A DNA stretch of 64,000 nucleotides from Raillietiella orientalis (Eukaryota), in the NCBI GenBank assembly GCA_036172245.1, contig JAYWIR010000006.1, positions 1,178,001 through 1,242,000 on the forward strand, read 5' to 3'. Shown here piece after piece: positions 3,301 through 62,158 of the stretch (the first letter of the stretch is position 1; each line of letters begins with the position of its first letter). The translations under genes were made by a program, and so were the position numbers. The notes beneath the pieces were generated by a model that did not search any database, had not been told where the DNA came from, and saw only the letters and a list, made by a program, of their open reading frames with translations.

Positions 3301-3407
3301 AACAGCAGCAGCAGCAGCAGCAGCTGCGGAACTTCCCGAAGAACGAGAACGGGGGATCCAAAGACCCGTTCTCCAGCATCTCCTCCGTGATAGTGGCTCC
3401 CATTTGA
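374..3407 (+). CDS. KAZN: Kazrin-like (liprin-related) triple SAM domain protein, 3' portion; 5' exons lie upstream of the window
   Basis: Frame-consistent GT-AG exons: 374-594, 751-939, 1593-1875, 2294-2438, 2486-2642, 3198-3407. The spliced translation has kazrin SAM motifs: WKANMVLAWLEIALGMHQYKVACAENIRSGK|VLLELTDEEFESGLSIRNPMHRKKLRLAVEE, LDHLWVCNEWLIDLGLSQ|YREAFMTFLVDGRML, DPLFWTNKRFVKWARSIDLVEYADSL, SGIHGALVILELSFDAETMATAIGIPQNKVIIRRHL. The last exon is less certain than the SAM exons. Confidence 0.88.
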
Positions 3408-5300: not shown

Positions 5301-5329
5301 GCTTCATATACGCCTGTTGCCTGAATTCT

Positions 5330-32050: not shown

Positions 32051-33161
32051 CTTTCCAGGAAGGTCGCAATGACGAATGCTAAGTTGAGTTAGGGATCGCC
32101 AAGAAAATTATCATCAGGACTCTTCCTTCTTGTTATCCCATCAAAGTATGAAAATACAGACGCAATTTAAAGTTAGCATTTTCCTTTTTTATGAATGCAG
32201 GCGATTCTGGAAAACTTCCTTCGCTAATTGAACGATATGCTGATTAGGAATGCTAAATTTTTCAAGTGCTTTTTTCTTCCATGCATATTTTTTGGGTCCT
32301 TGACGGCCCTGACGGATTCTTGCAGAGATACGTTTCAAGGGTATTCATTTTAGTGAGGTACTAATAAGAGTGGACCTAGTATTGTACTAATCCATCTGAG
32401 AGTGCATAGAGTGTTTACTATTTTTATTGCAAACATTTGTCGGATAACAAAAATATCACTTTTTCTCAATGGCAGAGGTTTAGCTGATCAGAATTAAACC
32501 CGAAAACAAGAACATCGGATCGGATATCTTTCCTTTTTTTTTTTTCTCCTTCACTATTTCTAGGTAACGTCACTCCCTCATAATTGCTATTCGAAGAATT
32601 GCACATCCGTATGTATGACCAAAGCTGTTGTTATCCGCAAAAGGAAACCTGCTTTTATAAGATGAACTGAAACAATTTTTTAAATTTGGTGCCCAGGAAA
32701 GGCTAAAGGTATTTCTTCATGTGTCTGTTCTCATCAAGGGAGCCGAAACTGATTCAGCGGATTGGTTCTCATGTCTGAAAACCTGAAAGTCGGATTCAAA
32801 CACGAAGAGTGAGCTCGTTTTCTCCAACTAGCTATAGTATCAAAACTGTAATGCCACATGGCATGTGCATCGGGAAAAATTATTGCCTTATCAACAGACC
32901 ACAAAGGGATATTCAGTCCTATACAAATCCGTACGTGAAAAATTTCTTCAAGGAATGCTTGCATCTGCTATTCACGTTATTGAGGATCCGCAGTGTGGTA
33001 ACACCGAGAGCATTGGGAAATTGATATAATGGACTTTGAAAAAAAAAAAAAAACATACACACACACACAAAAGCTCAAAACATTATCATTGCACGTGGAC
33101 TCATCTGAACGCAGTGCTTCTTCAGCTGCTCGGTTCTTTCCCAACAGAAGAGAGACCTACA

Positions 33162-35940: not shown

Positions 35941-38900
35941 ATGGAGGATCAACAGTTCTGCTTAAAATGGAACAATTTCCAAAATAACATTGTTGCATCT
36001 TTTGAAACATTACTTAAGGATGAAGATTTTGTAGATGTAACTTTAACTTGTGAAGGAAAAATACTCAAGGCTCATAAGATGATATTATCTGCATGTAGTC
36101 CATATTTTAAGGATCTTTTGAAAGTAAGAATCTTTGCATGATTTGGAAACAACCAATTCTAGGAATGCATTTTTTCGTTTTTTTTTTTTTTTTGAAAAAC
36201 TTAATGCTAAATATCAAGGGCAAAATTCGCAGTTTATAAACAGCACTCACAATTACATCATTTGTTAAGCCGAGTAATGATTAAGCATTACCATTGGTTC
36301 TTATTTAGTGATAATTGAATTTTATAAATGAATTTGGCCACAAACTCAGTTTTCATTTGATTTATGTTGTTTCAGCACGTATCTCTAATGGTTAGGATAT
36401 ATTATCGATGTATTAAATACAACTCAATAACTGCTGCATGAAATACAACATATATTCAAGCAATTGAACACACTGGTTTTTCTGTGAAGTTTGTAAAAAG
36501 TGAATAACATCCACATCTATTTTTACATATATCTTTAGCATGTATTTGATTTCAATGGAAATGTTTAACTGAGGCTTGGGAATGACCTCACCGATCTATT
36601 CTTCTTAAATATCAAGTAATTTTCCTTATTTGAATGCCATTTCTGATGTGTCTAAGGACATAGCAATTGTTGATTTATCCTAGATACAGTGCACTTGATT
36701 TGCAATCAGTTTGTGTTGTTTGTCATACAGTGCATGTAATCCAAAATTTTTTTCAAGAACATACCACCTTCATCTTGAATTTTTGCCGTAGCTTACATGT
36801 ACGGTTTTTGGTAAAGAAGTCCCCAAAATAATTTTCTTAGTAAGTTATTTTCAAGTCTACATGTTCCTTGAAATTTCAGCACATTGAGTGTAAGAAACTG
36901 TTTCATGAGATAAATCATGAAAGACCTTGTTTGTAGGCTGTGACACATGTACAAATTGGTGTTTGTAGATCACACAAAGTTTTAATATTGTTTTCATTGC
37001 ATGATGATTGCTCTTGGGATGCTTTTGTATTTCTTGAAAAAGCATAGGATCATAGAAAACTTTCTTTGTAAACTACTTGAAACAATGGAACTTGATTTGG
37101 GAATTCATTATCTATTTCCTTAATTTTATTGTGTTCTAACAAGTTTGCAGCCACAATAAAAGTTCATTTTGATTCTAGATTCATTTTGAAGTTCATGTTT
37201 TCAAGAATGAAATTAATACAGTGAAGTGATTGTTTCCCTTGAGATTGAGCAAAAATGTGTTTAGGATTTGCATTGTCAACTAAAGTGAAATGATAATCTC
37301 ACAGAGTTTGTAATGTGCATTCATCTTCAGATTCAGAATTCTAAAATACTTTTTCTTGTGGACATATTGAATTTTAGCAACAATTTGTATTTATTTCAAA
37401 TGTGAAGATAGCACATTGCTAAAATTCAATTCAAGTTTGTAATATTTTCAGATGATTCCAATTGAATTACTTTTGATGTTTAGCTTTTCATCTCACCTGA
37501 AGTAATCAATTTTGGTTCCAGTAAATATGCTAAAAGTCTTTTCCAACATGTCTTGATTTGCCTGTTCTTATGGTTTAAAAAGTAATTCCAAATTATTAGT
37601 GTTCACCAGTCCAAGTTATTTTGAATTGTGTGGATTTTGTAAGTATTCTATACTGAGGCAGTTGAGTGCTCCATTGAGGTGATTAGTAGATTACCCTCTG
37701 CATTTCTGTCTGACTTTGTCTAACCAAACTTCAGCTTCCTTCATTTCTGTCCCTTGCTCTATTTTATAGGCAGTGAGAATTCAAATGTAGTCAGCTTATT
37801 GCCAGAGAAACCAGACAGAAACAGTTTTAAAAAAGAAATAATAAAAGCATTCATTTAAAGTTCCATCTAGGGTCCCTGATGTTTGTTTTAGTATTAAAAG
37901 AGTTCAGACTATCATTATTAGACTAAGGATTTTTATTTTGAAAATAATGTATTCTTTAAACTGATTCAAAGTGATGAAGATGGTAAGACTCCAAAATTAG
38001 TGTGAAGGTTTGACTGTACTTTTCCAGCATGATGACCTTCATATTGTGTTCATCTTCCCTCTCTCTCTCCCCACCTTATTTTGCCCTCTTTCATATTTCT
38101 CAATTCTGGAGATTTGAGTCATTTTTATCGAAGTTTCACATTAACATATTTAGAGATTTGTTAGCTTTTGAGAGTTGTTTTCAGCATCCTGTTGAAGAAC
38201 TTCTGCACATGTGAATATTTAACTTTCTTGTGTGGCAGTACAGTACAGAGCAGTACTAAGTATTTTACTATAATAAGGCACAGTTGGATATTACAAGTGA
38301 TCAGGATTTGTACAGCTGAATTAAGATCTTCTGAAAGGAGAACACCATTAATTTTTTGTGATTTGAAACTTCTTTCATGTTATGTTAATATTTCGTTTTT
38401 GTTTTCTTATTGAGTGTTTCTTGTGTCCCTTTTTTGTTTGTGTTTACACTTGGTGGTGGTATTTATTTTAAATTATGCAACACTGTTTTAATATACAGCT
38501 TTATTGTTTTCTTTTTGTTATTGTGGTTCTTTGTTGTATGAATTCTTGATTTGTATCTTCAGATATCTTTCTTTGATTTTGTGCACATTGGATAGATTAT
38601 TCTGTAATTTCCTTTTACTGGCAGATGTGATTTGTGTTGTACTTTGGTTACCACCCAAAGGGATATGTAGTTTACTCCATATTGTATCACAAGATAATTT
38701 TAAATCTTTTCCATTAAAATTGAGTTCCTGTATGCCTAATCTTATTTCATGTAATGAAAGATTATTTTAGTAAATGAAAACGAAAATGTTTTAGTTAAAT
38801 TTCAGATTTCACTTGTTGAAAGACATTAGTAAAATGATAACATGTTAGAAAGATGTAAGCTACAATTCAGAAAAAACTACAAAATTTTTTATTAATGATA

Positions 38901-41742
38901 AAATTAAGTTCCAGAGGTTTGTAAGCAGTAAATAACTAAGCTGTCCTATTGTGGCAGTATTTTTACTTAGAATTTTTGTCCATTGACGTACTTCAAGAGG
39001 TTAAAGCATTTCAATTAGAAAAAAAGCGAATCCTTTAAAACTTCCCCCATTATTAAATTTCATTTTCATATAATATAACTTCATAGTATTCATTTATTGC
39101 AGAGAAATATCGAACTGGATATTTGGTGCTAAGTGATCTTATCTCTGGTTAATGCATCATTTGTATATCTCAGCATTTAAGAGGCTTAACTTTTGATGCT
39201 ACGTTATTTAATCCTTGTAAAAGATTTTAAGAGGTTCTGGTAGTAACTTCATTCATACAGAAGATATATTGTTTGCTTATAACCAAAAATATTGTCAAGG
39301 CATTTCATGAATTCGTAAACTAATATTGGTTACTTGGTGAAAAAAACTGATTGCCAATTTATTCAAAGAAGAAAACACCAATGTAGTTGGTGTCATTACA
39401 TAGATTGCATTGTTGATGAACTTTCAGATTGGTTTATTTTTATCAGTTGCAATATTCATAATTACTGGGATGTGTAATCATATAAATGTGCATCCTTATA
39501 TGACAGTACAGCAGCATTGGAGATTGAGAAAATTACTATGTATGTATGCACATTGTGATTCGCAAATTTTCAGAATGTGAGAAACCAGAGTCATGACTTC
39601 AAAATATTAGAAGCATCACACAGTAAAATATTTTTCCATTAATGGAATTTTACAATTAATAAGTAAATTTGGCTATTAGTAGATTTTTTGGAAGTGGACT
39701 ACATAAAAGTAGATCATTTAGTGGAATACTTGTATTGAATTAGTTTGTGTGTGTGTGTGTGTTTTCATTTGATACCATTGGCATATATTTAGCCATCATT
39801 TTGGCATTCTTTCAGAGATAATCTGGTGTAGGCATCATGTTTAAAAAGCATTTCTTCCCACTCATCATTGTTCTTCATTAGTGTTTCAGCGAATTCCAAT
39901 TCCAAAATTGTGTATGTAGTTAAGGAAATTCCGTATAAAACTCATTTTTTTATTTATTAACAAATTGGCAGCTTGTGAATAAAATGAAATGTTGGAATCT
40001 GATGTACACCAAGAACAGAATATTAAGCACGCAGTGTGCACATTATGTGTACATAACAAACATATGCATAAAATTAACCCTCATGCATTTCAATTGTGGA
40101 ACTTAATTGCTTTATATTACCTCTTTGCTATTAACGTATTTTTAGAGAGTTCATATTTTATCAGTATGGGAGAGTACTTTTGGTACTTCGATGTATTTGT
40201 TTAGAAGTTAAATTGGAAAAATATTCAGAACATTCAACCATCTTATTATTATCTTTTTCCAGACTGCCTTAACAAGCACTTACATCACGTAAATTTTGAA
40301 TGCCAAGTTTAGTCTGTAGCACATGTCACTTTCATTTGATCTAGCAGAAATCTTTAAGGCTTTGGTTAAATTGAAAATTTTGGAAAATATGTATTTTAAG
40401 TTTTCCATGAATCAGTATCTAGTATTCAAATTGTAAAAATTAAGGAATAATGATCAAATATTTCGAGATGGACTTGTGTGCATTGGCATATTTGATAATT
40501 CTGGTTCTGTTAAGCATGGATAATTAAATTTCAGGAGCAAAATGGGAACCAAACTACCTCAAGAGTGTTTAAATGATGTATTGTTAAAGACTTACTGCAT
40601 ACATATGTATAACTCGTTTGAGTTAGCACTCACGTATCAATCATTAGTGATTGTATTGAACATTAACGGGATTTTATAGTCTGCATTATATTATTATGAA
40701 GTACTAGTCACCCTTACGAAGGTTTTTAAGACTTATGTTTTCAATGTTCCTGTTGTGTAAAAAGTCAGTAATGATTGTGTATTTTATATATCTGTATCTT
40801 GAATCTAAAGGATATTATAACATAAATTGAAGCAAAGCTTAATAGCAAATAAACTGGTAGAATAAGAGTTTATTGTTTTTGAATCCTTTGCAAATGAGTG
40901 AATAATTTTATTATATCTTATTATAGGCTAATCCTTGTCAGCACCCTATTATTATTCTACATGATGTATCATTTAATCATCTGCGTAATATTCTCATCTT
41001 TATGTATCATGGGCAGGTGAATGTTGCACAAGAAATGTTAACAGAATTCTTGAAAACGGCAGAGTCCTTAAAAGTCAAGGGTTTAGCTGAAGATAATGTA
41101 ACAAGATAGTATTTTTGTTGGTAAATATCATTAGAAAACGTTATAGGGCCGACGTTTGTCCGCATTTGCAATGGGAGAGCAGATGACTGGAGTAAATATT
41201 AGCCGTAAACGGAATCGGACTTCACATGCTGCTGTAGATTCTGCAGCCTCTTATTGCAAAAAGATAACTAATGATAATGGTAATGAAGTGCGGAGATGAA
41301 GAGCTTTTAATTCAAATTGTTTTAGACTTAGTTCATACTAAAACTGAACCTGCTGAAATGTATGATCCTGCTTTTGCTGATGACTCCCTATCATCAACAA
41401 CATTCCATGGAAGAAAATGGAGTGGTGATCCAAATAGAGGAAGTGGACAGTCTAGTGCAAATTTAGCAGAAAGTGCAGAATTTCTCGATGAAGAATACGA
41501 ATCCATAAGCACGCCAGAGCATGTAGATGGTAATTTTATTAAACTTTACTGTGATTATTTCTTAAAATATGTTTTAGTAAAAGAGCATTTAGACTCAAAT
41601 TACAGTGATAAATCTATATTAGAACCCAGTTATTTAGGTAAGTATTTCGTTCTCCTTTGTTTGTTGCAATTAAGTCTTATAGAATCCAATACTCTAATAT
41701 CCGAAGAATATGAACATGCAGTAACGCAAGATACATCCCAGG
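35941..41742 (+). CDS. Tramtrack-group BTB/POZ transcription factor, common (constant) exons; Broad/Lola/Fruitless/Mod(mdg4)-like
   Basis: Exons 35941-36123, 40927-41097, 41147-41279, 41326-41529, 41578-41637, 41683-41742. BTB domain: [117 protein letters not shown]. The linker has a basic RKRNR stretch and KTEP. It ends at a phase-1 donor, cagg|gtgagt. Confidence 0.93.
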
Positions 41743-41782
41743 GTGAGTATATTTCTAAAATTTCTACTAGCAATTAATGGGT

Positions 41783-41788
41783 AATAAA
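41783..41788 (+). terminator. Candidate intronic polyadenylation signal just after the last common BTB exon
   Basis: AATAAA 40 nt after the donor and 5 nt after the in-frame read-through stop (41775-41777). The context is AT-rich, so it may be chance. Confidence 0.3.
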
Positions 41789-42277
41789 CAATTACCTAAA
41801 AGTGTTTTCAATATCGATTATTGATCATTTTTCATTGATGGGGTCTCTGATTGTCTTGTTCACTTCTTATGGTGTTTGTACCATCTACTCATTTTTGTAT
41901 ACCTGTATAGGATAGAATTATATTAGAAATGCTTAAACAATGCTTTTAGTGTCTTAATTACTTGCATATTTATCCTTTTGTACCATCACCTGATCCATAT
42001 GATTCCCATACAATACTATTATTGTTCATTAGTGTCACATGTTGGAGGCCAGAAGGGCAGAGAACAAGGTATTTATTCCAGTTAGTTGGATTAGCTTGAT
42101 CTTGTCCTCCATGGCTTATTAATCCTTTACGTTGTGCTATACCATTGTCCAAGTTTATCTGATTGGTGCTCTGGTTAGGCTTCTTCCACATGCATCTACT
42201 ATTCGATTTTTACATCCACATAAGCTGATCAGTTAGGGTGTGCAGTATGGTGATAAGGAAATCTGTCTGCTTTTCAG

Positions 42278-42465
42278 TTATGGTTCAGGACAAAAAGTCA
42301 ACCTTTGGTAAATCACTGGACGACTGTTATTCACCTGAACTAGGATTGTTCCAATGTAACTTCTGCTTCAGAAGCTACAAGACCCGAAATAGCTTAGCCA
42401 ATCACCGTTCACTTAGGCACCGGGATAAAAAGCGTAATATTCCGGTAGAAGTGTTGCATCCATAA
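42278..42465 (+). CDS. BTB gene alternative terminal exon A: single C2H2 zinc finger
   Basis: Acceptor ttttcag|tt, phase 1, matching the donor at 41742. Encodes FQCNFCFRSYKTRNSLANHRSLRHR, resembling the second finger of Broad-type pairs. AATAAA at 43412. Confidence 0.88.
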
Positions 42466-44913: not shown

Positions 44914-44921
44914 TATCGATA
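44914..44921. promoter_or_regulatory. DRE-like palindrome TATCGATA
   Basis: Exact match to the Drosophila DREF-binding core promoter element, located at the CpG-poor to CpG-rich transition. Function is untested. Confidence 0.25.
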
Positions 44922-47900
44922 TTAGTCTTTTTTCTTTTTAACCAGTTTGTCAAGCAGAGTGAAGGAGATATGTAGTAAACCAGCGTTTCTGATCCGTTCA
45001 TTAAAGATACAACGAATAAGTAATTCGATGGGAGGGAACATGAAAGTGGTTCTGTTTTGACATTATTTTTGGAGATAATTCATTTTTTTCTTATTTGTGC
45101 TGGTCCGCGTTTATTACACTCCAAGATTTGTTTATTATTTTCTTTACTTGTTCAAGTCGATTTTGCCCGAATGCCCGCGAGATATGCTTCACGAGATAAA
45201 ATGCGGAGATGAGCGGTCTGCTTGCGTTTTGCCACAGTTGATAATGGGAAACTGGGGCGACCTCCTGATAACTTGGTAATCGGTCACTGCGAAGCTGTAG
45301 CTCGACTTCCAGAGACTTCCAGAGTCGTGACTTGAATCGCGTGCTCCCGGATCTCTCTCCAGTGTCAATCCAAAAGTTGCACCGTAAAAGGTGTTTTTCC
45401 TCCTCCCTCTTCAGACGTTTCGTGTCCCATGCTGGGAGCTCTCCGCGTACCAAATTTTGCATCAGAAGTACCGAATTACGGTAGAAACCCGAACGAGTGG
45501 AGTCTTTTCCGGTTTTCTGTCGTTGCGAAACTTGAAATCGTCTGGGCGTGTCAACTGAGAATGCACTGAATCTTTGAAACAAGCATGGGCATAACAGTTT
45601 TTGTGTTCAATTTTGGCTACTGATTAGTCAGGGCTGTGTTGCGAGTCTTTTGGTTTCTCCTTACACATTCTTTGGTATCGCAGTTGGACCATTTGGTTAA
45701 AGTCCCGCGTTACTAATTAAAGCGCGCTACTAGACTGAGGACAGATGGCAATGATCCCCAGGGTTCGGATAGTTTGATAATTATCGAACAGAGGTAGATA
45801 ACCTACATTCCATAATAAGATTGCCGCATACGTGTCGAGCCCACGTTGGATAGCTTCTTCTTCTTCCCCCCCCCCCCCCAGCTGGGCAGATAATTTTTCA
45901 TAGGATGCAATCAGCGTTTGAGAATGAAGAAATTAGAAACTTATCGGCATTACGGAGAAAGCTATTGCAAGACGAACTAATAACTGTAATTGCATAATGA
46001 GTACTTTGCCGTAGTAAGTGTACTGCATGCACCCCCCCCCCCATTATAAAAGACAGCAAAAGGAAACTTGTCTTGGGAAACATTAAGTTGACGTCCTTAA
46101 GAGAATTTGGAACTGCTACTGTTTGAAAAATGGGATTTCAGATTCGATGTTTTACTTTTATCGTGAGATAGGAGAGGAACGTTGGTTTGCTGAGATTTGC
46201 TGGCAGTAGTTTATAAGGACAGATATGGCGATGCTTCGGGTACAGATCTAATTCATAGTTTAATTTCAAAACTCGTGATTAGTATCTTCATCATTATAAA
46301 TGTAATGTGATAACCGTCAAAATGACAACCAAGTAGATACGGCCAATTTCCTGAAAATTATCGTCTGTTTATGAATACAGAAATCTCTTTTTTCAATTTG
46401 TTTTTTTTTTTTATTCACAAGAGCAGGAAAAAAAAAAACATCCCCGGATTCTTACTCAAGTAAAACTTCATATGTAGATTTTGATATGCGGGAGAAATCA
46501 GAGAATCCCTGTTTGTTACAGAGTCCAGTTTGATATTTTATCACCTACAAGAAAATTCTGAAAATTTGTAACAAGCAAAATAGATGTGTAAAAGAAACTT
46601 GGTGAATTTCACCGATTGATGAATATCACGAATACAAAAGATGAAGCATCCAGTCCGATGTTGATGAAGCCGAAACGGTGGTGACCTTTCGATTTTTGAA
46701 TGCCTTTGCTCAAATAATTGGGTTGATATGTGAGACACGAGAAGCTTCTCGAGCAACTCATCAGAAAGCGTGCCGTTTCTGAAGAAGTTTTGTGAAAGTT
46801 CCATTGCTTCATGCAGTAGCGGGAGTGGACTGATGTAGAAAAGCTCTACTTGGTCTGTTATTTGTCGAAGACTCTAGAACTCGATGACTGCTGCTCTTGC
46901 ATTACCCACTTATTCTTTCTAACCCTTTGCGATTTTTGCACTATTCGATGGATTTGTCTACGGGGCTTTTTTCCGCTCCCAAGCCGCTCTGACGAAAAAA
47001 TCGACGTAGCAACGAACGTCAAAAAGGTGAATTCCATCTAATTCAGTGTGCTTCAAGGTGTTACTGTTGTTCACAGAAAAGACTGCTTGGTGTTTTCCGA
47101 TGGCAGCTGCTAAAAACACAGCACCTAAAGCCAAAGAATGTATGGAACTGTAATGCAGAAAACTAGAAGTAACATCAGCGAAGTTTGCGCGGCGAGCGGA
47201 TGGCAGTAAGATGTCTTGTCGCTGGACCCACTCTCATATGACACACTGCGAAAATCGGTAGCGCAAGGAATCAGAAACGGGTTGTGTGTACACTGTTTTG
47301 CATATTTTTTTTGTGTGTGAAACATTTGCGTATGCAAAGGGAAGAGCACTTCGTCTCGACTCGGTGCATCTCCGAAGCATTGCGAATCCGAGTTGACAGA
47401 TTGAAATTTTCCGATGCTGAGGTCGTAAAAGTTGTCGGTCTGTGTGCATGGCTCGAGACGTGGGACCATCCTGAAGATCCCGGACCGTCCTGATCATGAA
47501 CATCACCTCTATGGCCACCATCGCATTCTCCAGTAATTGTGCTCGTGTTTCTTTTCTTTTCTTTTTTTTTTAAAAAAAAAAGTTCCACGGATTGCATTAA
47601 AAATGATCAAATACGTGAGAATGGTTTTAAGCTGTAGCTGTATTCTTCGCTCTTATCGCCGGGAATGCTGTTCTTCGATTTGTGTACATCGTGCTTGTTG
47701 TCGTGCTTTGGGGAACCCTGCAGACCGTGGAGATTAGGACGTGTATTCGTATTTTGTCCGCACAATGACATGCTTTACCGAGAAGGTTGGGAAGCGCTTA
47801 GACCTTCTCTTGAGCATCCAAACTTGATTTTGTCGGTATTCCCTTCAAGGAATAGTGACTTTTCCGAAGTCATGGGCTTCTAAAACCGAAAAAAATGGAA

Positions 47901-50863
47901 CATTAAACAAGAAGTGCTCATGAAGTGGGCTCTGCCTTTTGCTTGTATTTTTCGTCTAAGCACGAAAAGGAAAGGTGTGCAAGAAAAAGGAAAGTCGATT
48001 CGTAATTGGGAAACTGTTTTGAATCCAACACACCCACAACTTGAAAAGGATTTGCGAGTGTAGAGTACTCACATGCATTAGGTCAGCGGTGGGAATGCGG
48101 GTTGCGAAACAGTCTGATGGCCTCGTGGTGGATGAAGAGTACCTGTTGAGAAATGCGAGTCTCTTATGTAAGATTTCCGAAATTGTCGACCCAAAAAGAA
48201 AGAAGGAAAGAAAACCAAGGAAGGTAGAGAAAAGCTGTCTTTGGGAATTGCAAAGCGTATTTGAAAGCGAATGCAGATAGAGAAAAGGAAAGGAAGAAAG
48301 AAAAACAGATACTTCTGGGGTGTTCTAAGGGCATCAGCAAAGTGGAAAAGCGGCTTCCGAAGCACTTTTTCTTGAGACTTGCGGAAAATTCTTTAGTCGG
48401 ATGCCACGCCCACTCTGGACAATTTTACTCGGGGATCGAAGGATTGGAGATACTGTAAAGGCGAATTAGAACGTATTTGATTCAGACAGTCGTCGAGACT
48501 GCATCACTGAATCAGTTCGGAGTGCGGAAAGTTTCCCAATCACAACAAAAAGGTTTTCAATCTTTTTCCATTCTGCATGTCGTGTTCGACTGTGCGCTTG
48601 TGCGAGGTGCGCAATCAGAACAAATTCGTCCATGCGAGAACAAGAAGCGAGCTGTCGTAGAAGGGACTTTCTAGGAATGCAAATCAGTGCAACGGGAGGC
48701 ACACAAGGAAGCCTTTTGCATATTCAGATAGCTCAGCCAGGGGAAAATTTTGTTTAGTTGCCGCGATCAAGAGTGGTCAGAGTCAACAAAAGTGATCTTC
48801 GTTGTTTTCAAGCATCCCGATGTGTCAGATTATGCGTGAGAATGAAGTGATGTATGCTCGCAAAAAAGAAAAAAAAAAAAGGTTGACATAAAGTTTGGAA
48901 AAAAGTTGGAGGAAAGAGCTCTCTTTTTGCTATGTGGGCTGTATTTGAAAGCAGCCGCCTTCTTCGTATAGACCATGAATGTGGAACCTGTGCTGCTGCA
49001 CAGGCTTCTTCTTCTTTTTTTTTTTTTTTTCCTTCCCCCCCTTTCTTTTTCACGTGGCTCTCGAGAATTCTTCGGGAATGGAACTGGATTCCCCGCTCTG
49101 AGGTTCGCTAATGTAAATCTACTACTTGAGCCAGCAACCGAACACGTGGTATTAGAAGATAAGGTAAAGAAAAGAGCTTTTAAATACTAAGACAATGGCA
49201 TACGTTGATTATAAGATGCGCATGTCTTACACCCACTGTCTGCCCCTGAGGCATGGGAAAGCACTGCGTGCCACCACCGAATCCACACACACAAGTCATT
49301 TCATCGTGTCTGGGGTGGAAAAAAAAAAAAAAAAAGCAGGGAAATATAGATCATACAGTTGTGGGTTTGCGATGCATCACCTCTCTCTGATGAGGTGGGC
49401 ATGTGGGTTTTCTTTAGCATCCCACGAGGATCACTAAGCGTTGGTTGCGTGCGTAATATGCGTGCGAATAAGTTCTTGATTTCTCGTTGCGCAATGAGCA
49501 CATGTTTGGGACTATTTCCACGAGCGTTGAATGTTCGTTGTCTTCATTGAAATGCATTCATAAAGCTGCTGCTCTTGTAGGCGTTTGTAGCATTTTCAGA
49601 CGGAAGCACGGAATTGCAGAATACGCCTCACGAAAGAATTTCGATCTTAGGGAGTATTCAACAAAATTTGTATAGGCGAGCAAAGTTCCCTGTCGTTCAT
49701 TTCGGTTTCCCAGAAAGTTTTAGGGAGGAGATTATTGGGGTTTTCGATTCCCTCCCTTCCCCACCCACCCCCTTTTCCTCATCACTCGTCTCTTGGAAGA
49801 TGCCGGCCACGCAAAATTTTCGTTTGTTCCGCCCTGAAGGAGGCGGAAGGCTCGTATCTTGGGAAGCTCGCGTGCGTGTAGTGGTTTTGTCTTCGGATCA
49901 CCCACCAGTGCTCCTGTCGAGCCCAACTCCTCACCCTGTTGCCTTGTCTCGTGAAGGGAGCTGTAGAAATTTCTTCGACGGATGCTGCGGTGTTTTCCTG
50001 GAACTTTGTTCTCGTTCACGTCTAAGCCCATTCAAGATGGAACCTCTTGGGTGGAAGAGATGTCTGGAGAAGGCGAAGTGGTTTCACAATTTGGGTTCGC
50101 GTCTGCCCTTATTGCCAAGGACTTGCGCGACTTCATATTCTGTTTCTTTTGCTTGTTTGTTCATTTCTCCATTCGAAGGTTCTTCACGAGATGATATAAG
50201 TAGGAGAATAGAGGATTCTGTATAAATGCAGAATGATGACCGCACGCGACGTGACGTTTCCGATTAGGACAGCACCAGTTGGATTCACCCATTCAGTAGA
50301 TCATAATTGGAATGGCGTAGACGTAAATCGTGTTATAGAGAGGAACGTTCCGGCATTTGGAACAGCGTTGGAATTCCACGGACTCAACGGAACGGATTTC
50401 TATGGAAAGTTCACCGTCAGGGATCGAAGGAGCAGAGACGTTCGCGCGAGATTCCCGTCTTACGAGAATAATTAGTAGTAATTATCAACTATCAAGGGAT
50501 CAAAAAATGTGCATGCACGCTTCATAATGGGTTTCCTTTTTTTTTTTTTTTTTTCCGGTCATCTTAGTTGATCAGCGTTATTCGGAATGAAGGACAGGTC
50601 AGTTTGGGAGACAGCTTTCGTTCATCGAATAAATAACATATTGATAGATGCGACATCGTATGCATCTTCAGTTTTCAGAAAATTCGGCTAAATTGCTTTA
50701 CAGGTGGTTTCGGTTGAGCATTGCTCTTGTTTTGCTTGTAGAGGGTAGTGTTTGGACACTGCGGTATTCTCGATAGGTGGTTGGGTCTCCCAACCTCTAG
50801 AAGTTTGCGTTTCTTTTTGTGATTTGCTTTAGACACTGTGGTGGAATTAATGGAAATGTTTTC

Positions 50864-50897
<34 letters not shown>

Positions 50898-53574
50898 CTT
50901 TCATGCAACATATAAGATGTAAACGGTATTCAACAGCACATCATTTAGTGATCATAATGGTGTGATTCTCTCTCTAGAATATTTGGATTAAGCAAATAAT
51001 TGAGAAGCTTGCAGAGGTAGACCTTGGAACCATTGCAGCGTCTCGGTAACAGTTTGATAATTTGCGTGATTATGGAGAGTTTACAGCTTATTAACTCTTT
51101 CGGTTCTGGAAACTTCCTGTTCCCACTACTCATTCTGTAGGTTGCTTAAGAAAACCATCGTTGTTTTCGGGAATCGGTTGCCCGTATCCAGTAGAGAAAC
51201 CAATTTCGAATCAGTTGGCTGTTTGTGGTGAACATCATGAATGCAAAACATGCTTGGCACCCTCCTAAGACAGTGGGGCTTCTGGATTTTCCGTTTTGTA
51301 GGTCCCGAGGTTTTATAGTGTCATCAGTTTGATTGACGCCTTTTTTTATCTCCTTGATTGTGCATTTTCCCAGTACTGGTTGTACATTCAGTCGATGGCT
51401 CTTGATTTTTCATAGCGATGTCTCAAATTCATATGAACATTTGGGTCACTGATACGATCATCGGCAAAGAAATCAACCGGTGATGAGATTCGATCACCTT
51501 GAGGCTATTTAATTTTTTTCGTTATCACCAGAAGAACTGTTTCGTAAGCGAAATTTTCACCATTTCTTTTTCTGCATCGCGTTTCATTCTCCGATGTAGC
51601 TGAGACTTCCTGTAAACTGCTCTTGTTGGATGGTGAAAGCATGTAGAGCAGGAGGGGTGAGTGAAATCCCCATCGATGGAAATGAGGGATTTTTCGCCTT
51701 ATCGATCGTATCGGATGATCAGCAGTGATCTCTCTTTCAGCCGTTTCGGTGTTGTAATGTTTTCTATTTGGAATATGCCTGAAATCGTTGTTATTTCTCG
51801 TGAAGAGGTGCCTATATCAAATTGGTGGAAGAAAGCTTTCACTTTCTCATTCTCTGTTCTCTCTCTAGGACTCCTTCAATGGAGTGTTTTTTTTTTTTTT
51901 TTTTTTTTTTTTTTTCTTGGAGGGAGGGAGGGGGGGGGGATCATTTATCTGTTCATGTTGAGAAGCTACGATTTTCCTGGTTTTCTGTCTTCCCAGGGTG
52001 TGATTTTGTTGTTGTTGTTGTTGTTGATTTTTTTTGTCATTCCAACATTTTCCCCATGAATTGACTGCAGTAAGAAAGCAGATGGAAAGCGGTCATATCG
52101 GGAAAAAGATGTTGGGCGTCGTGGTTCATTGGTTGAGAATGTTCTGCAGCCTTCCTCCTCGTAACTTTGAGCCGGTCCGTTTCGGTCGCACAGAGTCCAC
52201 GCGGAGTCGTGCGGTTTCGTTCCTTGCTATGAGGTTCCAAACATGTGCACTGGAAGTGCGGGAAGCTCCTCCCCTCCCCGCCCCCCTTTCTACTTCCGTG
52301 TGACCCAGACTGCTCCTCCAGACTTGTTTTCCTTTGGTGCTCCATCAGATTCGTACTTTTTTTCCAAAGTTTGGCACGTGGGGTGTGCCTCTCTTCGCCC
52401 GTGGCAGTGGTAGTTGCGAGGACGTCGAGGCACGATCTCGGTCCTGCTTGTGGGGTGTGCACTTTGTGAATGCGAGGGAGGAAGAGAAGGGAGAAAATCT
52501 GCACCGATTAAAGCTGTAAATGAAAGTGCATGTTTGTGACTGTATTGAAACATATGAAGTACACTGCCGTTGCTTAAAGAATGTGTGATTTCGTTTTTAT
52601 ACTCACAAATGGATTCAGAAGTTTTGCAGTACCTAGGATAGTACAATAATGGGAAAAGTCAAAACCTGCTATCAAAAAGTGAGTCTTAATCCGATTGCAA
52701 TATTATTCTTTTTACTGTATTCATAAAATTCATGTGTGCATTACCTTTTTTCGTGTTGTGTCATCTAAAAATGAATGGCGAAGAGTTGTTTGACGCCGTC
52801 ATAATCGAAAACAGCGCCGTTCGAAACTGTACGAAGAAGTATACATGCTTAAAGTTGGGTTCTTGCTATCAGTTATCTGTACAGAACAATAACGAGTAGC
52901 CTCCGTACACCTCCTTAATCAGTGTGCATAACGAGAACAGAAATCTTGCTCGTATGCCACGCATTTGAAATGTGATTGCTCATCGGTGAAATTGCCGATT
53001 GAATTGCCCTCCCTCCCTCCTCCCTCCCCCTCCCCCCCATCCAAAAAAAAGGTGCATTTTTTTTATAAAATAAAAAAATAAAAATAAAAATCCATGCTTG
53101 TAAAACTCCCAGTGTACTTCGGTCCATTCACTGTGAAGCATACTGGAAAGGACGTTTAGAAGACACGTTTGATTCTTGTGTTATTGTGCATTCTTGTGTT
53201 ACTGTGCATTATTGATGCTCCTGTTGTAGATGCTGTCTTGGGTCTGTGATGTTCCAAAACTTTTATACTGTTTGTCCCGAACCCCACTTTTTTTAACCCT
53301 GTTTGTACTGTAAGCAATTTGTCAAAGTCGCAATGCCCTATTAAAGCTCGCTTTCGATTTTTGATCGATTTTTTTTTTTTTTTTTTTTCCCTCCCCACCC
53401 CACTGTTTTATCTGTGGTTTCTCTCTTTCTGCCGTTCTTTCTAGGTAAACAGAACAATTTTTCGTGTAATTGCATTTTCCGAGCTATTATTTCAAGAAAA
53501 CACTGTTGTCGATGATGAACAAAAACCTGGGGTTAGCTGCTACCTGAGAGAGTGTAATTAAGAATGAATTTCAG

Positions 53575-53834
53575 GAGTTCTGGAAGTGGCGCTGAGTCCA
53601 GATGAACTTATGGGAATTTGTCCTTTATGTCAGAAGATAATGAACAAGAACAACATACCTCGTCACATCAAAAACATCCACAAGAGCGGAACGGAGCGCT
53701 ATGAATGTTCCTATTGCCACCGTAGCTACAAGAACGAAGCTTCTTTGTACACTCATCGTTACCATTGTAATGTACGATTCCATCTGTCTGAATCCAGTGC
53801 CGACACAAAACTGAAAGACGACTCGAAATCCTAA
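53575..53834 (+). CDS. BTB gene alternative terminal exon B: C2H2 + C2HC zinc-finger pair
   Basis: Acceptor tttcag|ga, phase 1. Encodes CPLCQKIMNKNNIPRHIKNIH...YECSYCHRSYKNEASLYTHRYHC, stop at 53834. AATAAA at 54373. Confidence 0.85.
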
Positions 53835-54052
53835 TTCCATCACTCTGACGAAAGAAAAAGGAAGAAGACAAAAGAGCGATCACTAAATAGTACTTATTTC
53901 ACAAAGCTTTTTCTTCCTCTTCTTAGATTTTGGTTTGACTTTAGATTGTTAATAGGCAAGTTAATTCTGTAACTGAGATTAAATCTTACAGGAATGGCCA
54001 AGTGAGATTTTTTTTAAATACGTATTACAAAGTGATCTCGAAATGATCATTG

Positions 54053-54089
<37 letters not shown>

Positions 54090-55461
54090 GAAAGAAAGAA
54101 AGAAAGAAAGATTCCCTTTTCACTGTGCAGACAGTCTTGATTTTCCATGGTGCGTACACAGTTGTTCAAAGTTACTAATTGGATTGTGTACAGGACTCTT
54201 TGTAGAATCAATCATCTTTAAGGAAAGTTTATTTGCGTGTATAAAATTGCTTGCTTAGAAGAAAAGCAAAGCTCTATTTTTTGTAAGTGCCGCTATAATG
54301 GGAGGATTTAACAAATGACATAAGTGAGATCTATGTTTATATTTTACTAAAAAAAAAAAATGCCTTGAAGACAATAAAGATTACCTAACATGACTTTGCT
54401 TTTTTTCTCTGGGGTACAGATTCTGGAACATTCTCTCAGTATTTGCATCGGACTGTACTCGTACGCCATAGAACATGCAGCACGTGGTGTTTTTCTGATC
54501 ACGATTCTCATTTACATATTCGGATCGAAGTGCGGATTCATTCATCTTAGCATCGATTTCTCCGAAATTCTGGCAGTACTTTTCCATTTTCATGCCTGTT
54601 GTCCAAAAGATTGCTCCCAAGCATCGGCTGCTGCGAGCCCCTTCCTCTCTTCCCATCGAATCCACGAGAACCAGTGGTACGATCGAGTGGTCGCGTGGCC
54701 ACCGCTTCGTTTCCCCATTTTGAAAAGTGTACACATTCCTCAGTTGGTAACTCCTTGCAGTCTGCGTAAGCGCACGCTCAAGAGAGTCTGTTCTTCTTGC
54801 ATCACATACGGCATGGAAGTTCCATGGGTTTAGACTTTTGGTGCCAACTACTCATACTGTGGTGGATGTCTTGTGTTTCGTATGTTTTTTTTCTTTCTTT
54901 TTTTTTTTTTTTTTTTTCAAAAAAAAGGAAAAGAAAGAAAAAATCTTTTTTCTTTTCACGTTGGTTGTTTGGCAAGTTGAGACTTTCGGTTGCTTTTGCC
55001 GGTCATGGAAACAGCATCCGTTGCCCCCCTCCTCCTTCCAAACGTGCCTACCTACACCAAGTGAAATCTTCTGATTGCCTACCAGTCGTTTCTGGGAAGT
55101 TTGTTTAGTCCCCACCGTTATCGTTTGTGTCATTTGGATATTCGCTCCCACGTACTTATCACTTACCACGCAAGAGCCAGCGGAGGCGGAAGTGGTTTCA
55201 GCGGTAATGCTTCCCACTACTGAAACCGTTAACTTACAGTTCGCTCCCCCCCCCCGTGCTTGCCGGCGTTGCATTTGTGAGAGGACAGTGGTCCAGATCG
55301 TTTCAGAATAAGGTGTAGGATGATAAAAAGCAGAAATGTCAATTTCACGAGAACCTTGACTCCTTAAAGCAAAGCGTGAAGCTATCATGATGGACCGCAG
55401 GAAATGTACATCGAACGAAAGGCAGTTGTGTGAATTTCATGTCCTTGCATTCAGTTACCAG

Positions 55462-55463
<2 letters not shown>

Positions 55464-55499
<36 letters not shown>
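55464..55499. repeat. (CT)n microsatellite
   Basis: Perfect CT run followed by poly-C. Confidence 0.9.
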
Positions 55500-55501
<2 letters not shown>

Positions 55502-55779
55502 CCCCCCCATTTTTCTCCAAGTTGTCGAACACCTTCTCATTTGCATGTCACGATTGTTTCATCAGCATGTACATAGGTTTGCAAACTTTTTTTTTTTTTA
55601 TGTAAATGTTATGTTTTGGTAACTTAAGAATCACGTTAGAGTTATTTCATAAACCTGTTTTCGAGGAAATCGCAACATGGACACACATTAATTGGATCAG
55701 TTCTCGGGATTAATGATCTTAAGTCGATACTCCAAGCAGATATTTTCCGAGTCGCAGGGTCACCAGCTCTGTTTTCCAG

Positions 55780-56009
55780 ATACTTTGGAGTGGGGCCGTT
55801 TTGCGCAGTGTCCCGTGTGTTACAAGAGGATAACCAAGCATCACATGAACAGGCATATCAAGAACATTCATCGAGAAGACACGTCCCGAATTCCGTGCAT
55901 ATATTGCCAGCGAACTTTCCGCAATGATGCCTCTCTCAAGACACACTACTACAACTGTGCCAAGAAACAGTCCCAGTTGGCCAACAGTTGCTACAACGAT
56001 TCGCAGTAG
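55780..56009 (+). CDS. BTB gene alternative terminal exon C: C2H2 + C2HC zinc-finger pair
   Basis: Acceptor gttttccag|at, phase 1. Encodes CPVCYKRITKHHMNRHIKNIH...IPCIYCQRTFRNDASLKTHYYNC, stop at 56009. AATAAA at 56385. Confidence 0.85.
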
Positions 56010-56664
56010 CTGCTGGCGGAGATTGTGAGATCACCGTGAGCTGTCATTTTATTTTCACCTATTTCTAGGAATTTAATTTTGAGCATCGGAGAAGAGTATT
56101 GTGTGCTTTCTTGGAATCATAGCTCAAAAGATTGGATTTTTGTAATCACGTTATAGAAATCCCCTGCACTCTATTGCGAGGGACGGATAGTCTCTTTACA
56201 ATGTGAATGGTTGTTGTTTTCTATGCCGCCAACGTTCTCGCTAAAGGCGTAATTCTATATATATATATATATATTTGAAAGAAAAAAAAAAAAAAAAGAT
56301 AACGATAATACTATTTGACGCACTTCACAGTATGCTGAAGAAAAAAAAAAAAAAAAAAAAAAAAACAGATAAACAGGTGCAGCGAATAAAAGAAAAATGC
56401 TATAAACATGGACCTATCAAAGTTTGCTGCATGTTGATTTCTTTAAATAGACGTAGACTGAATATTGCAAAAAAAAAAAAGAAAGAAAGAAAAAGAAAAA
56501 AAAAAACGCAATAGTAGTATTAAGCGATTCATACTGTATTCACATAATTTGAGTTTATCCATAAAGAATTATAATTATTTTCGTCTCTGGGTTTCATTGT
56601 ACGTAACGCAGGACCTACGTCTGCCCTATCCTCGTTTATTCAGAATGCACACGACTATGCAGCC

Positions 56665-56698
56665 CTTCTTCTTCTTCTTCTTCTTCTTCTTCTTCTTC

Positions 56699-56730
<32 letters not shown>
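56665..56730. repeat. Compound (CTT)n-(CT)n microsatellite
   Basis: CTT run at 56665-56699, then a CT run to 56730. Confidence 0.9.
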
Positions 56731-57772
56731 CCCACTTCCCCTTCTTGTGCCTCCCCAGAAAAAAAAAATGAAGTTTTTGTTATTTTCACAATCTCTATTT
56801 TGCAGTGTTCTGATACTTGCTAATAAATGCAATATGTGACCAGTTTCATTTTTTTTTATCTATTTTATTTTGTGTATGTGTACATTCAATGCATTTTGAC
56901 AATGTATCCATACATGCATCAGTATTTCTGGCGAATTTATGGTTTTTTCTTCTTCTTTTCCGAACTTTTTTTTTTTTTTTTCTCCGGAGTAGAGTAGCCA
57001 CTATTAGCAAGCATGCCCGGATTGCATGCAGTAGTTGCTTATTGACATCGGGAATTCATGACCAGTCTTGAGGATAAGTTCTCCCGTGTTTTCCCTGGAG
57101 AATAGGTTTTTGGGGAATTCCTTTCGGGGAACCGTGTTCCTGGTCGCCGTGGTGTTCTCCCTCGCTGGTGTAGGAACGGTCTCGTACGGTTTTGACGGGC
57201 TCTCGACAAGTGGTCAGGTCCTCCGTGTGCCGCTGAGCAAGGAGGAGCTGAACGTAAAGCGAAGCGCGCACCGGGAATCGTTCTGTCAACACGTCGCCGG
57301 AAGCACATATAGGATGATGATGGCACAGCATTACCCACCTGGGAAGATCCCATCCTCAGTCCGTGGAAGAGTCCGCGGAACGTACCGAACTCCGGAGTCT
57401 TCGTGCACGGATGGCTCCTTCCTTCCCTCCCTGAGCCGCCCGCCTACGATGTTGGCGCGGTTTCGTGCAGCGGCAGCGAAGCTGACTCCGTGTTGAGGTG
57501 TTCCATCCGTTTTGTTTATTTTGTTTGCAGCTTCCGGAACAGTTTGAATCTTCGCCCGTGTGACCTTGGCGCGCGTCTTGACCTTTGAGTGCTTTCTGGT
57601 TGGTTTCCTTGGGTCGCGGCGGTTCCATCTCTCCATGTTCTCTCGGAAACGAAGTGTCGTATCCATTGGATTGTTTCTCACGTGTGGGCAATGGGATGTG
57701 TGCACTGCTGTGTCGGTTCGGGAGTTTCGAGCAACTGTTCCCTGATCACCACCGTCCGTCATGAAAGTATTC

Positions 57773-57774
<2 letters not shown>

Positions 57775-57804
<30 letters not shown>
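57775..57804. repeat. (TG)n microsatellite
   Basis: Perfect TG run. Confidence 0.9.
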
Positions 57805-57810
<6 letters not shown>

Positions 57811-58186
57811 TCGATTTTCGCTTATACGTGACAAAAAAAAATGAAGGTTCCATCCCTGTTGAAATGCATCCACGGAATGCATCCACCGTTTCAGCAGAGT
57901 AAGGAAACGTGGATAGGTTCATTGGAAAAAGAGTGAATATTAATTAGGATCTTCGGGTTTTTTGCCTTTGGTGCCCACGATGGAAAATTTTTTTTTTCCC
58001 TATCCCTCTTTCACGAGAACTGCTGAAGAAGCATTCCCGTTACCTCAACGGGATGCCTCCTTTCAAATCGATGTCCCCAATGATGTCAGTGCTTAAAGCT
58101 GAAAAAAATCCACCGCATCTCCTGCAATTTTCCGGGTGTAGTCGGTCGTCATACGGGGCTGCTGGCTGATGCAGGGTTGTTGTTAG

Positions 58187-58223
<37 letters not shown>

Positions 58224-58686
58224 CTTTCTAAGATGGTCGTAGGTAGCATTGAAGAACGGATTCTGTTTCTCGACGACCATTCACGCTCCCATCAGCAGAC
58301 CTACAGTCGGAAGTTGCATCTTTTGAGGTTCACAGCCAGTCCACGCCGTGTTGTTGTGAAGGAAGAAAAAAAAACAAAAAGCATTGATAGGTTCATTTCG
58401 TTCGTTGAAAGCAATAACTTGTAATGAGCATACATAGCATTTGTCAATGTGGGCTGCAGGAGTAAGCCATGTCGTGTGTGTCGCAAGATTTCATAAAGTA
58501 TCATAACATTCTGTTTCATACAGTGTGCACTTGAGACAAGAAGCATACTTTCGTTTTTTTTTTTTTTTTTTTTCCTTTTTTTGAAAAAAATGAAAATACA
58601 AAATCGAGTTTTTACGATACAAGCATGCGTAGAGCAATGCGAAAAATATTCGTTTCATAGTGGAAATAATTGAGAATGAATTTCAG

Positions 58687-58961
58687 GAGTTCTGGAAGGG
58701 GTCCTAGAAGGAGCAATGAGCCCAAATGAAATTATGGAGGCATGTCCTCTTTGTCGGAAGACCATGAAAAGGAATAACATAGCTCGGCATATCAAAAACA
58801 TCCACAAGAGTGGAACAGAGCGTCATGAATGTCTCTATTGCCATCGGACTTACAAAAACGAAGCTTCCTTGTACTCTCACCGTTACTATTGCACGGTCCT
58901 TCGCTTTCAAATGTCAGAAACCGATAGTGACACGAGATCTCAACAGAATTCTAAGCCATAG
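58687..58961 (+). CDS. BTB gene alternative terminal exon D: C2H2 + C2HC zinc-finger pair, paralog of exon B
   Basis: Acceptor tttcag|ga, phase 1. Encodes CPLCRKTMKRNNIARHIKNIH...HECLYCHRTYKNEASLYSHRYYC, stop at 58961. AATAAA at 59395. Confidence 0.85.
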
Positions 58962-61900: not shown

Positions 61901-62158
61901 TTTTCATTTGTGCTGGACGGAAACAGCGACACTGCAAACTGTGCGTTGTGATGCTTCGGCTAAGCAAACCAAATTCGTAGATCACTGTCCTTCTCTTAAG
62001 ATCCGACGCTCCGCCCAGTTGCATGCGCCCTTCGTCTCTTTTTCCCTTTTTTTTTTTTTTTTTTGGGGGGGGGGGGGGGATCCCTTTTAAACATTTTTCC
62101 TTTCTTCTCGCACCAACTTCGCCACGTTTTACCGTCACCCTTGGCCTCTTGTCCACCA

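Follow-up and report, generated by a model that had tools for sequence, protein, structure and literature searches.

Several described systems, among them lola, fru, broad and ttk, join one BTB-coding part to different zinc-finger ends. In Drosophila lola, a constant part with a Tramtrack-type BTB is followed by a series of alternative 3′ exons, and 17 of the 20 isoforms are reported to end in different C2H2 fingers (PMC11426971). According to one study, Lola is confined to insects (PMC5026256). Drosophila mod(mdg4) is likewise described as having many alternative 3′ ends behind one shared 5′ BTB part (PMC4667647), but its variable parts carry FLYWCH domains instead of C2H2 or C2HC fingers. 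Among crustaceans, the Penaeus monodon cDNAs Pmfru-1 and Pmfru-2 are reported to be products of a single locus that uses its finger exons in a mutually exclusive way; this locus is annotated as longitudinals-lacking isoforms (PMC8858584). The BTB zinc-finger family is also described as strongly expanded in barnacles (PMC8220330).

Here we analysed a locus of comparable design in a 64-kb window, the term used below for the whole stretch of DNA that was analysed. As in lola, a Tramtrack-type BTB constant part precedes an array of candidate alternative 3′ exons, whereas lola is described with about five times more variable exons and with the use of trans-splicing. In mod(mdg4), some variable parts are encoded on the opposite strand and can be joined only by trans-splicing, whereas no finger exon was found on the minus strand of the window. 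Compared by description only, the fruitless-like locus of P. monodon has one BTB part and two finger variants, versus four in the window.

The constant part and its BTB domain

We first give the common part of the gene. An earlier note on this DNA had proposed six common exons that end at a single phase-1 donor at position 41742, and checking of the frame indeed recovered all six at the proposed place:

35941-36123, + strand: constant exon 1 (e1), with the ATG start and the N-terminal half of BTB, including FCLKWN at residues 6-11; donor GTAAGA
40927-41097, + strand: constant exon 2 (e2), C-terminal half of BTB, phase 0; acceptor TTATAG, donor GTAACA
41147-41279, + strand: constant exon 3 (e3), linker, placed by splice sites and frame
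41326-41529, + strand: constant exon 4 (e4), acidic and Ser-rich linker, placed by splice sites and frame
41578-41637, + strand: constant exon 5 (e5), 60 nt, phase 1 to phase 1
41683-41742, + strand: constant exon 6 (e6), 60 nt, ending ..QDTSQ plus one base, G; donor GTGAGT

When joined, these exons (35941-41742) give 811 nt (mod 3 = 1), that is, 270 stop-free codons and one additional base, and code for a Tramtrack-type BTB domain followed by a linker of 150 residues. The introns between them measure 4803, 49, 46, 48 and 45 nt, the acceptors are ..TAG in 5/5 cases, and the last exon ends at the phase-1 donor AGG/GTGAGT. Linker exons 3 and 4 gave no Pfam match and belong to no known family; among metagenome contigs, neither a relative of the exon 4 linker nor any related transcript contig was found.

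The Pfam BTB model (PF00651) matched 35941-36120, which is the first 60 of the 61 e1 codons, with an E value of 1.4e-12 (48.2 bits; cut-off 20.5), and it also matched e2 above the same 20.5-bit cut-off (E 3.7e-8). The domain is N-terminal, beginning at residue 21 of the ATG-opened frame. A tblastn search with 120 BTB proteins matched e1 with all 120 and e2 with 113 of them, and this was the single BTB in the 64-kb window; the claim that no finger exon has a BTB domain of its own was thus borne out. To our knowledge, Tramtrack-type BTB proteins are restricted to arthropods, and the named proteins among the best 120 of 288 BTB matches (E <= 1e-5) were all from arthropods.

A conserved N-terminal FxLRWN motif is described for TTK-type BTB proteins (PMC11426971), and the window has this motif as FCLKWN, with K replacing R. 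The same FCLKWN occurs in the barnacle protein P0030 and in P0044, while FCLRWN is found in the decapod relatives. Over the first 60 e1 codons, the best relatives of this BTB reach 75% identity; they are multi-isoform genes found in Eriocheir, Scylla, Portunus, Macrobrachium and Palaemon. In a BTB tree of 47 rows, which included no D. melanogaster sequence and in which non-fly rows bear automatic names, the window branches from an unresolved fork together with ostracod, amphipod, decapod and unnamed rows; it lies outside the starred clade of bab/ttk-named rows (96/92).

Four candidate terminal exons

We then examined the four downstream exons for which the earlier note had claimed a phase-1 AG, one or more fingers and a separate stop codon. 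All of them were found in frame at the positions claimed:

42278-42465, + strand: ZF1, one C2H2 finger (42355-42420) and stop; 535 nt from the donor; predicted isoform 332 aa; acceptor TTTCAG
53575-53834, + strand: ZF2, C2H2 and C2HC finger pair (53619-53768) and stop; predicted isoform 356 aa; acceptor TTTCAG
55780-56009, + strand: ZF3, C2H2 and C2HC finger pair (55809-55958) and stop; predicted isoform 346 aa; acceptor TTCCAG
58687-58961, + strand: ZF4, C2H2 and C2HC finger pair (58743-58892) and stop; predicted isoform 361 aa; acceptor TTTCAG

As a result, 4/4 finger exons fit the phase of the constant donor, and each joined frame is free of stops up to the stop of its own finger exon (332-361 aa). 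The first variable residue after QDTSQ is V, G, D and G in ZF1 to ZF4, respectively. In the open reading frames at 53568 (ZF2) and 58680 (ZF4), the upstream in-frame stop lies just 2 codons before the acceptor, and because of this distance no other entry into these two frames is possible.

A six-frame regular-expression scan across the whole 64 kb returned 14 finger-like matches, of which seven, all on the + strand, are in the four finger exons; the remaining 7 are in short or low-complexity frames without other support, and the scan gave no finger motif between 58961 and 64000. All 7 fingers have the C2H2 Cys/His spacing, 3 of them ending in Cys (C2HC); in each pair of ZF2-4 the C2H2 finger comes first and the C2HC finger second. 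The best Pfam zf-C2H2_4 scores of ZF1 to ZF4 were 19.4, 22.3, 26.0 and 17.8 bits, all under the 27-bit gathering cut-off. The acceptors of ZF1, ZF2 and ZF4 did not pass a 70% pyrimidine filter. An AATAAA after each finger exon, also claimed in the note, is present downstream of the stops of ZF1 (+947 nt), ZF2 (+539 nt), ZF3 (+376 nt) and ZF4 (+434 nt), but this is only mildly above chance, with 27% of trials at random points in the window having an AATAAA within 550 nt.

Duplication and selection among the finger exons

A repeat search identified ZF4 as a tandem duplicate of ZF2 (repeat family D2, 76% over 220 nt), and over the 150-nt finger core the two exons gave a dN/dS of 0.11 at a dS of 0.94. 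By these measures, ZF2 and ZF4 are old duplicates under purifying selection, and the same values rule out that ZF2 and ZF4 are unused relics. ZF3 is 43% identical to ZF2; judged by such similarity, ZF2, ZF4 and, more distantly, ZF3 are local duplicates of one another. The intron sequence directly before two of the acceptors is conserved as well:

53555-53574, + strand: conserved intron element before the ZF2 acceptor, 20 nt, 19/20 bases shared with the ZF4 copy
58667-58686, + strand: conserved intron element before the ZF4 acceptor, 20 nt, copy of 53555-53574

These last 20 bases of the intron flank contrast with the preceding 20 bases, of which 6/20 are identical between ZF2 and ZF4, and the 14-nt core of the element has exact matches at these two places only in the window. 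Given the low dN/dS and the conserved acceptor flank, selection has maintained the two exons along with their acceptors.

The junction in crustacean multi-isoform genes

The annotated crustacean relatives share the type of junction seen in the window. In 30/30 isoforms (8/8 from decapods and 22/22 from barnacles), the constant part ends (D/E)(T/G)S(A/S)Q and is followed by G, D, V or A, the codons of which all begin with G, as required by a phase-1 junction with G. Among the 10 named insect proteins examined, none had the junction motif before a finger.

The decapod genes of Eriocheir, Scylla, Portunus, Macrobrachium and Palaemon resemble the window in having an N-terminal BTB and then a linker, and their constant part ends ..DTSAQ, followed by G/D/V and differing finger-bearing C-termini. 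However, their linker is about 260 residues longer, and the linker that crabs and prawns conserve between BTB and junction is not found in the window, as tblastn of P0001-P0013 (E <= 0.01) matched the two BTB exons only. The BTB tree, moreover, gives no supported grouping of the decapod genes with the window, and the decapod isoforms are annotated models whereas those of the window are predicted. The loci of the barnacle Amphibalanus amphitrite (P0020-P0046), with 17 and 5 isoforms, likewise have a common constant part and alternative fingers, and their constant parts end ..DGSAQ, ..DGASQ or ..DGSSQ, then G, D, V or A. They differ in having many more isoforms, most with more fingers, and in a BTB that belongs to another clade of the tree (93/90 support).

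Proposed mechanism and alternative explanations

The locus is probably one arthropod Tramtrack-type BTB zinc-finger transcription factor gene, most like crustacean genes, in which a shared donor is joined to one of at least four alternative terminal finger exons. The pre-mRNA would join donor 41742 to one of at least four 3′-terminal exons, each of which contributes a distinct finger or pair of fingers together with a separate stop and 3′ end. The output would be four proteins of 332-361 aa that share an oligomerising BTB part and differ in DNA-binding specificity, and exon choice would depend on whether splicing reaches a distal acceptor before the transcript is cleaved and polyadenylated after a proximal exon. 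Ordinary cis splicing would suffice, because all of the parts lie on one strand and in their order of use. The proposal of the earlier note that a constant BTB part feeds alternative finger ends in the manner of lola, fru and broad thereby gains partial support, from the phase fit, the selection, the acceptor flank and the junction type of decapods and barnacles, whereas use of the junction, its mutually exclusive use and DNA binding by the fingers are predictions from sequence.

The same products could also arise if ZF2-4 were transcribed from promoters of their own, situated in the 11.8-kb gap or between one exon and the next, and then joined in trans, as has precedent in Drosophila lola and mod(mdg4) in the accounts cited (PMC11426971, PMC4667647). 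The long gap that separates ZF1 from ZF2-4 differs in composition (G+C 0.38-0.45 versus 0.30-0.32) and could hide another promoter, and the conserved intron element stands directly upstream of the ZF2 and ZF4 acceptors. We nevertheless regard joining in trans as improbable, since the exons are all on one strand and ordered, so that cis splicing suffices, and RNA pairing between the post-donor intron and the 150-nt stretch upstream of each distal acceptor was not significant (z +1.1, 0.0 and -1.5). The distance of ZF2-4 from the donor (11.8-16.9 kb) and the weak, purine-rich polypyrimidine tracts of the ZF2 and ZF4 acceptors would fit another arrangement, in which the exon at 42278 is the only true end of the BTB gene and ZF2-4 are exons of another gene, with its 5′ exons located elsewhere, or unused duplication relics. 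Furthermore, 148 of the best 150 profile matches for the finger pair lack a BTB, and the pair thus occurs in other protein contexts too. However, ZF2-4 need an upstream phase-1 partner, and 41742 is the only one seen in the window; a Pfam match was obtained for 0/9 long frames tested between 42.5 and 64 kb; and relatives join the same type of finger to BTB, namely P0051, P0044 and P0101 (tblastn E 3.5e-8 to 1.2e-6). We give this arrangement an equally low probability.

Splicing of the finger exons in series, to yield one multi-finger protein instead of using one exon at a time, appears still less probable, indeed very improbable. Database proteins with 3 to 5 tandem copies of the finger pair do exist, for example P0122 and P0134, but such proteins may be gene models that fuse alternative exons. 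A stop codon follows shortly after the fingers in each exon of the window, and each isoform in the decapod and barnacle sets has one C-terminal variant. The alternative use of single terminal exons remains our preferred reading. It involves no new kind of mechanism, as the architecture is already annotated in crabs, prawns and barnacles and well studied in flies. With four variable exons in 23 kb and introns of 45-49 nt, the locus would show in compact form how arthropods diversify DNA-binding specificity behind one oligomerising BTB.

Evolution of the finger array

The junction (D/E)(T/G)S(A/S)Q with its phase-1 G might mark one ancient crustacean BTB gene with swappable fingers, the array of which predates the split of the window, decapod and barnacle lineages. 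This is a tentative idea that we consider rather doubtful. In that case the lola-like design would predate insect lola, to which it might even be ancestral, and the 20-nt intron element would be part of the machinery of exon choice. Such an ancient crustacean array, if real, would contradict the insect-only origin of Lola as published in one study (PMC5026256). The shared junction motif also offers an easy way to follow this gene design through the crustaceans.

Finally, we compared the fingers themselves, which the earlier note had suggested may form a lineage-specific array. ZF1 and the first finger of the barnacle isoform P0030 share 41% identity (E 3e-7), ZF2 is 43% identical to the BTB-finger protein P0051 (BLASTP), ZF3 was matched by P0044 (tblastn E 1.2e-6), and a Scylla isoform (variant P0004, P0011) is 34% identical to the window finger pair (E 1e-6). 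The finger types thus recur in other crustacean-like BTB proteins and are not lineage-specific, although the local duplication that links ZF2, ZF4 and ZF3 agrees with the suggestion in part. A profile built from the three paired finger exons matched 3783 proteins at E <= 0.001, most of which have multiple fingers.

BTB constant part and terminal zinc-finger exons

Comparison of sequences supports the locus, in its core, as a Tramtrack-type BTB gene with putative alternative terminal zinc-finger exons, a design already annotated in other crustaceans. The earlier note had proposed that BTB constant exons lead to a phase-1 donor at 41742, followed by four in-phase finger exons with their own stops, and our analysis of the frames, splice sites and fingers confirmed this arrangement.

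Exons of the constant part (BTB domain and linker) and candidate terminal exons ZF1–ZF4 with their predicted products
35941-36123 (+), constant exon 1, first half of BTB; ATG at 35941; Pfam PF00651 at 35941-36120, E 1.4e-12
40927-41097 (+), constant exon 2, second half of BTB; Pfam PF00651, E 3.7e-8
41147-41279 (+), constant exon 3; GT..AG introns, frame
41326-41529 (+), constant exon 4; GT..AG introns, frame
41578-41637 (+), constant exon 5; GT..AG introns, frame
41683-41742 (+), constant exon 6; donor AGG/GTGAGT (cut at the slash)
from 42278 (+), ZF1; acceptor TTTCAG; one C2H2 finger; product 332 aa, first residue V
from 53575 (+), ZF2; acceptor TTTCAG; C2H2 then C2HC finger; product 356 aa, first residue G
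from 55780 (+), ZF3; acceptor TTCCAG; C2H2 then C2HC finger; product 346 aa, first residue D
from 58687 (+), ZF4; acceptor TTTCAG; C2H2 then C2HC finger; product 361 aa, first residue G

When joined, the six constant exons gave 811 nt, corresponding to 270 codons without a stop and one additional base (G), and the introns between them, the first of 4.8 kb and the others of 49, 46, 48 and 45 nt, have GT..AG ends throughout. The Tramtrack-type motif, written FxLRWN in PMC11426971, is present at the N-terminus as FCLKWN, and the constant part closes with QDTSQ and the G. The surroundings of 35941-58961 are AT-rich (G+C 0.30-0.45) and resemble arthropod DNA. A tblastn search with 120 BTB proteins detected one BTB in the 64 kb, in agreement with the claim that no terminal exon has its own BTB domain; a further match at 32797-32994 was weak (E 0.23) and was discarded, as its translation was nothing BTB-like. 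When solved structures were compared with the first 60 codons of exon 1, matches were confined to BTB chains of vertebrate type and to CP190 (best E 9e-10), and no Tramtrack-type structure was found with this query. No relatives of linker exon 4 were found in metagenome contigs. The last two introns of the constant part, 41530-41577 (48 nt) and 41638-41682 (45 nt), are multiples of three and stop-free in the exon frame, within one open frame at 41268-41777, and thus their retention would preserve the reading frame.

With the G from exon 6, ZF1–ZF4 each read in frame to their own stop (4/4). In two of these frames, an in-frame stop lies just two codons upstream of the acceptor, so that the acceptor position is forced. 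The Pfam finger scores of all four exons are under the curated cut-offs. A six-frame scan of the window yielded 14 finger-like matches, half of which (7/14) are within ZF1–ZF4, while no support was found for any of the other seven, and the same scan detected no finger motif between 58961 and 64000. The AATAAA reported after each terminal exon is indeed present, at +947, +539, +376 and +434 nt, but just mildly above chance; like the low finger scores, this is a weak part of the observation. We also searched for further phase-1 terminal exons without fingers by using a crude acceptor filter, which passed 11 frames, including only ZF3 among the four finger exons. The long frames 45091-45606, 49581-50225 and 60299-61012, covering five of the ten non-ZF3 candidates, had no Pfam match; the first of them is on the minus strand and merely overlaps its plus-strand candidate.

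Relatives of the BTB domain, the junction and the fingers

The first 60 codons of BTB exon 1 matched 288 proteins at E <= 1e-5, with the best relatives, at 75% identity, in crabs and prawns. These crab and prawn genes have several annotated isoforms, in which the N-terminal part is common and the finger-bearing C-termini differ. In all of the isoforms compared (8/8 decapod and 22/22 barnacle), the common part ends with (D/E)(T/G)S(A/S)Q, resembling the QDTSQ plus G of the window, and the variable part opens with G, D, V or A. Since the codons for these four residues all begin with G, the pattern marks a phase-1 junction that has the G on the constant side. None of the 10 named insect proteins that were examined has such a junction before a finger. 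Outside the BTB domain and the junction, the linker has no similarity between the window and the decapod genes. The comparative evidence supports the core of the earlier proposal that the terminal exons are swappable.

The BTB phylogeny suggested in the earlier note was run by maximum likelihood with 47 rows, which included no D. melanogaster reference and otherwise bore automatic names. The window BTB was outside the supported clade of fly bric-a-brac proteins and planthopper tramtrack, but fell among ostracod, amphipod, decapod and unnamed rows without resolved placement. Given this placement and the composition and naming of the rows, the gene cannot be called lola, fru or broad. The literature itself disagrees over whether crustaceans have lola at all: PMC5026256 places Lola in insects only, whereas PMC8220330 reports barnacle families of 'Lola' and 'Br-C'.

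As for the fingers, three BTB-finger database proteins (P0051, P0044 and P0101) join a BTB to the finger type of the window (tblastn E 3.5e-8 to 1.2e-6; BLASTP 43% identity for P0051), a BTB-bearing Scylla isoform is 34% identical to the window's finger pair, and the single finger of ZF1 shares 41% identity with a BTB-bearing barnacle isoform. The finger types thus have relatives behind BTB domains, and are not confined to this lineage. With a profile built from the three paired exons, 3783 proteins matched at E <= 0.001; the best 150 were mostly multi-finger proteins, with a BTB in just two, and hence the profile search gave no link that would tie the finger pair to BTB genes. A word-index search for longer proteins matching ZF2 yielded none at E <= 0.001, although it was weak, as only 15 candidates shared words. 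A few profile matches, including P0122 and P0134, contain 3-5 copies of this finger pair in tandem. In P0122, P0134 and P0171, which lack a BTB and carry 1-5 copies, a first finger ending ..KNIH precedes a C2HC finger with ..YKN..SL..H...C; these proteins may represent gene models in which the alternative terminal exons of comparable loci from other genomes were fused. In metagenome contigs, the finger profile found one locus, on a 7-kb contig of 23% G+C (L001), where one finger ending ..RHIKNIH at 2932-2994 is in a 140-residue frame with a GIY-YIG-like N-terminus. This single finger in an unrelated frame, without a BTB, was dismissed as irrelevant.

Duplication of the distal exons

ZF2 and ZF4, tandem duplicates of each other, share 67% protein identity and 76% nucleotide identity over 220 nt. 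Their 150-nt finger core has a dS of 0.94 and a dN/dS of 0.11, indicating an old duplication with both copies retained as coding sequence. The flanks are past aligning, except for the 20 intron bases directly before the acceptor, which are identical at 19/20 positions, versus 6/20 in the preceding 20; the 14-nt core of this element occurs exactly at only two places in the window, before ZF2 and ZF4. Such conservation would be expected if the acceptor is used and its branch-point or regulatory region is constrained. ZF3 belongs to this finger type as well but is more distant (43% identity, with saturated synonymous sites), and the triple of paired finger exons arose through local duplication. 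The earlier suggestion of a possibly lineage-specific array is therefore only partly borne out: the paired exons are of local origin, but the finger types recur behind BTBs elsewhere.

Proposed mechanism of terminal exon choice

Cis alternative splicing linked to 3'-end choice is the simplest reading, with junction use predicted from the sequence and the comparison. From the single donor at 41742, splicing would reach any one of four acceptors, at distances of 0.5, 11.8, 14.0 and 16.9 kb, and each terminal exon would bring its own stop and 3' end. A cDNA precedent is provided by Penaeus monodon, with two mutually exclusive finger exons behind one BTB part, as described in PMC8858584, and many isoforms are known for fly lola, according to PMC11426971. 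Trans-splicing of the kind described for lola and mod(mdg4) is a less likely alternative, for which the 11.8-kb gap of higher G+C might contain a promoter; it is not needed, since all of the parts are on one strand and in order. A search for RNA pairing of the docking/selector type, with the intron following 41742 on one side and the distal acceptors on the other, gave no signal (z +1.08, +0.04 and -1.45), and such pairing was rejected.

Neighboring features

Other features of the window
706-1170, SAM-domain frame
7913-8482, coiled-coil frame
16848-17720 (+), METTL6-type tRNA methyltransferase frame, 290 codons uninterrupted; Pfam Methyltransf_23, E 6.8e-15
27762-29147 (-), open frame of 461 codons with a RING-H2 finger at its end; Pfam zf-RING_2, E 2.1e-15
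35432-35497, 54044-54109, 54891-54956, 58179-58244, 61830-61903 and others, T-run/A-run stretches; repeat search

The METTL6-type frame has relatives spread over insects, molluscs, echinoderms and vertebrates alike, and no database protein exceeds 51% identity to it (48% for the top-scoring match), so that the collection contains no close annotated relative of the organism; the frame gave no taxonomic placement. The RING-H2 frame, which lies upstream of the BTB gene on the opposite strand, probably represents a single-exon E3 ligase gene. At 2001-6000, G+C reaches 62-65%, against 30-45% in the rest of the window, and this block holds open frames on both strands, 200-400 codons long, which look compositional rather than coding.

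T-run/A-run junctions (~20 T then ~20 A) recur in and around the BTB locus, where (GA)n and (CA)n runs are likewise frequent. The repeat search grouped 10 low-complexity stretches at 35-64 kb, about half of which are clear T-run/A-run junctions, and one inverted pair was found among them (54041-54105 / 54885-54949).
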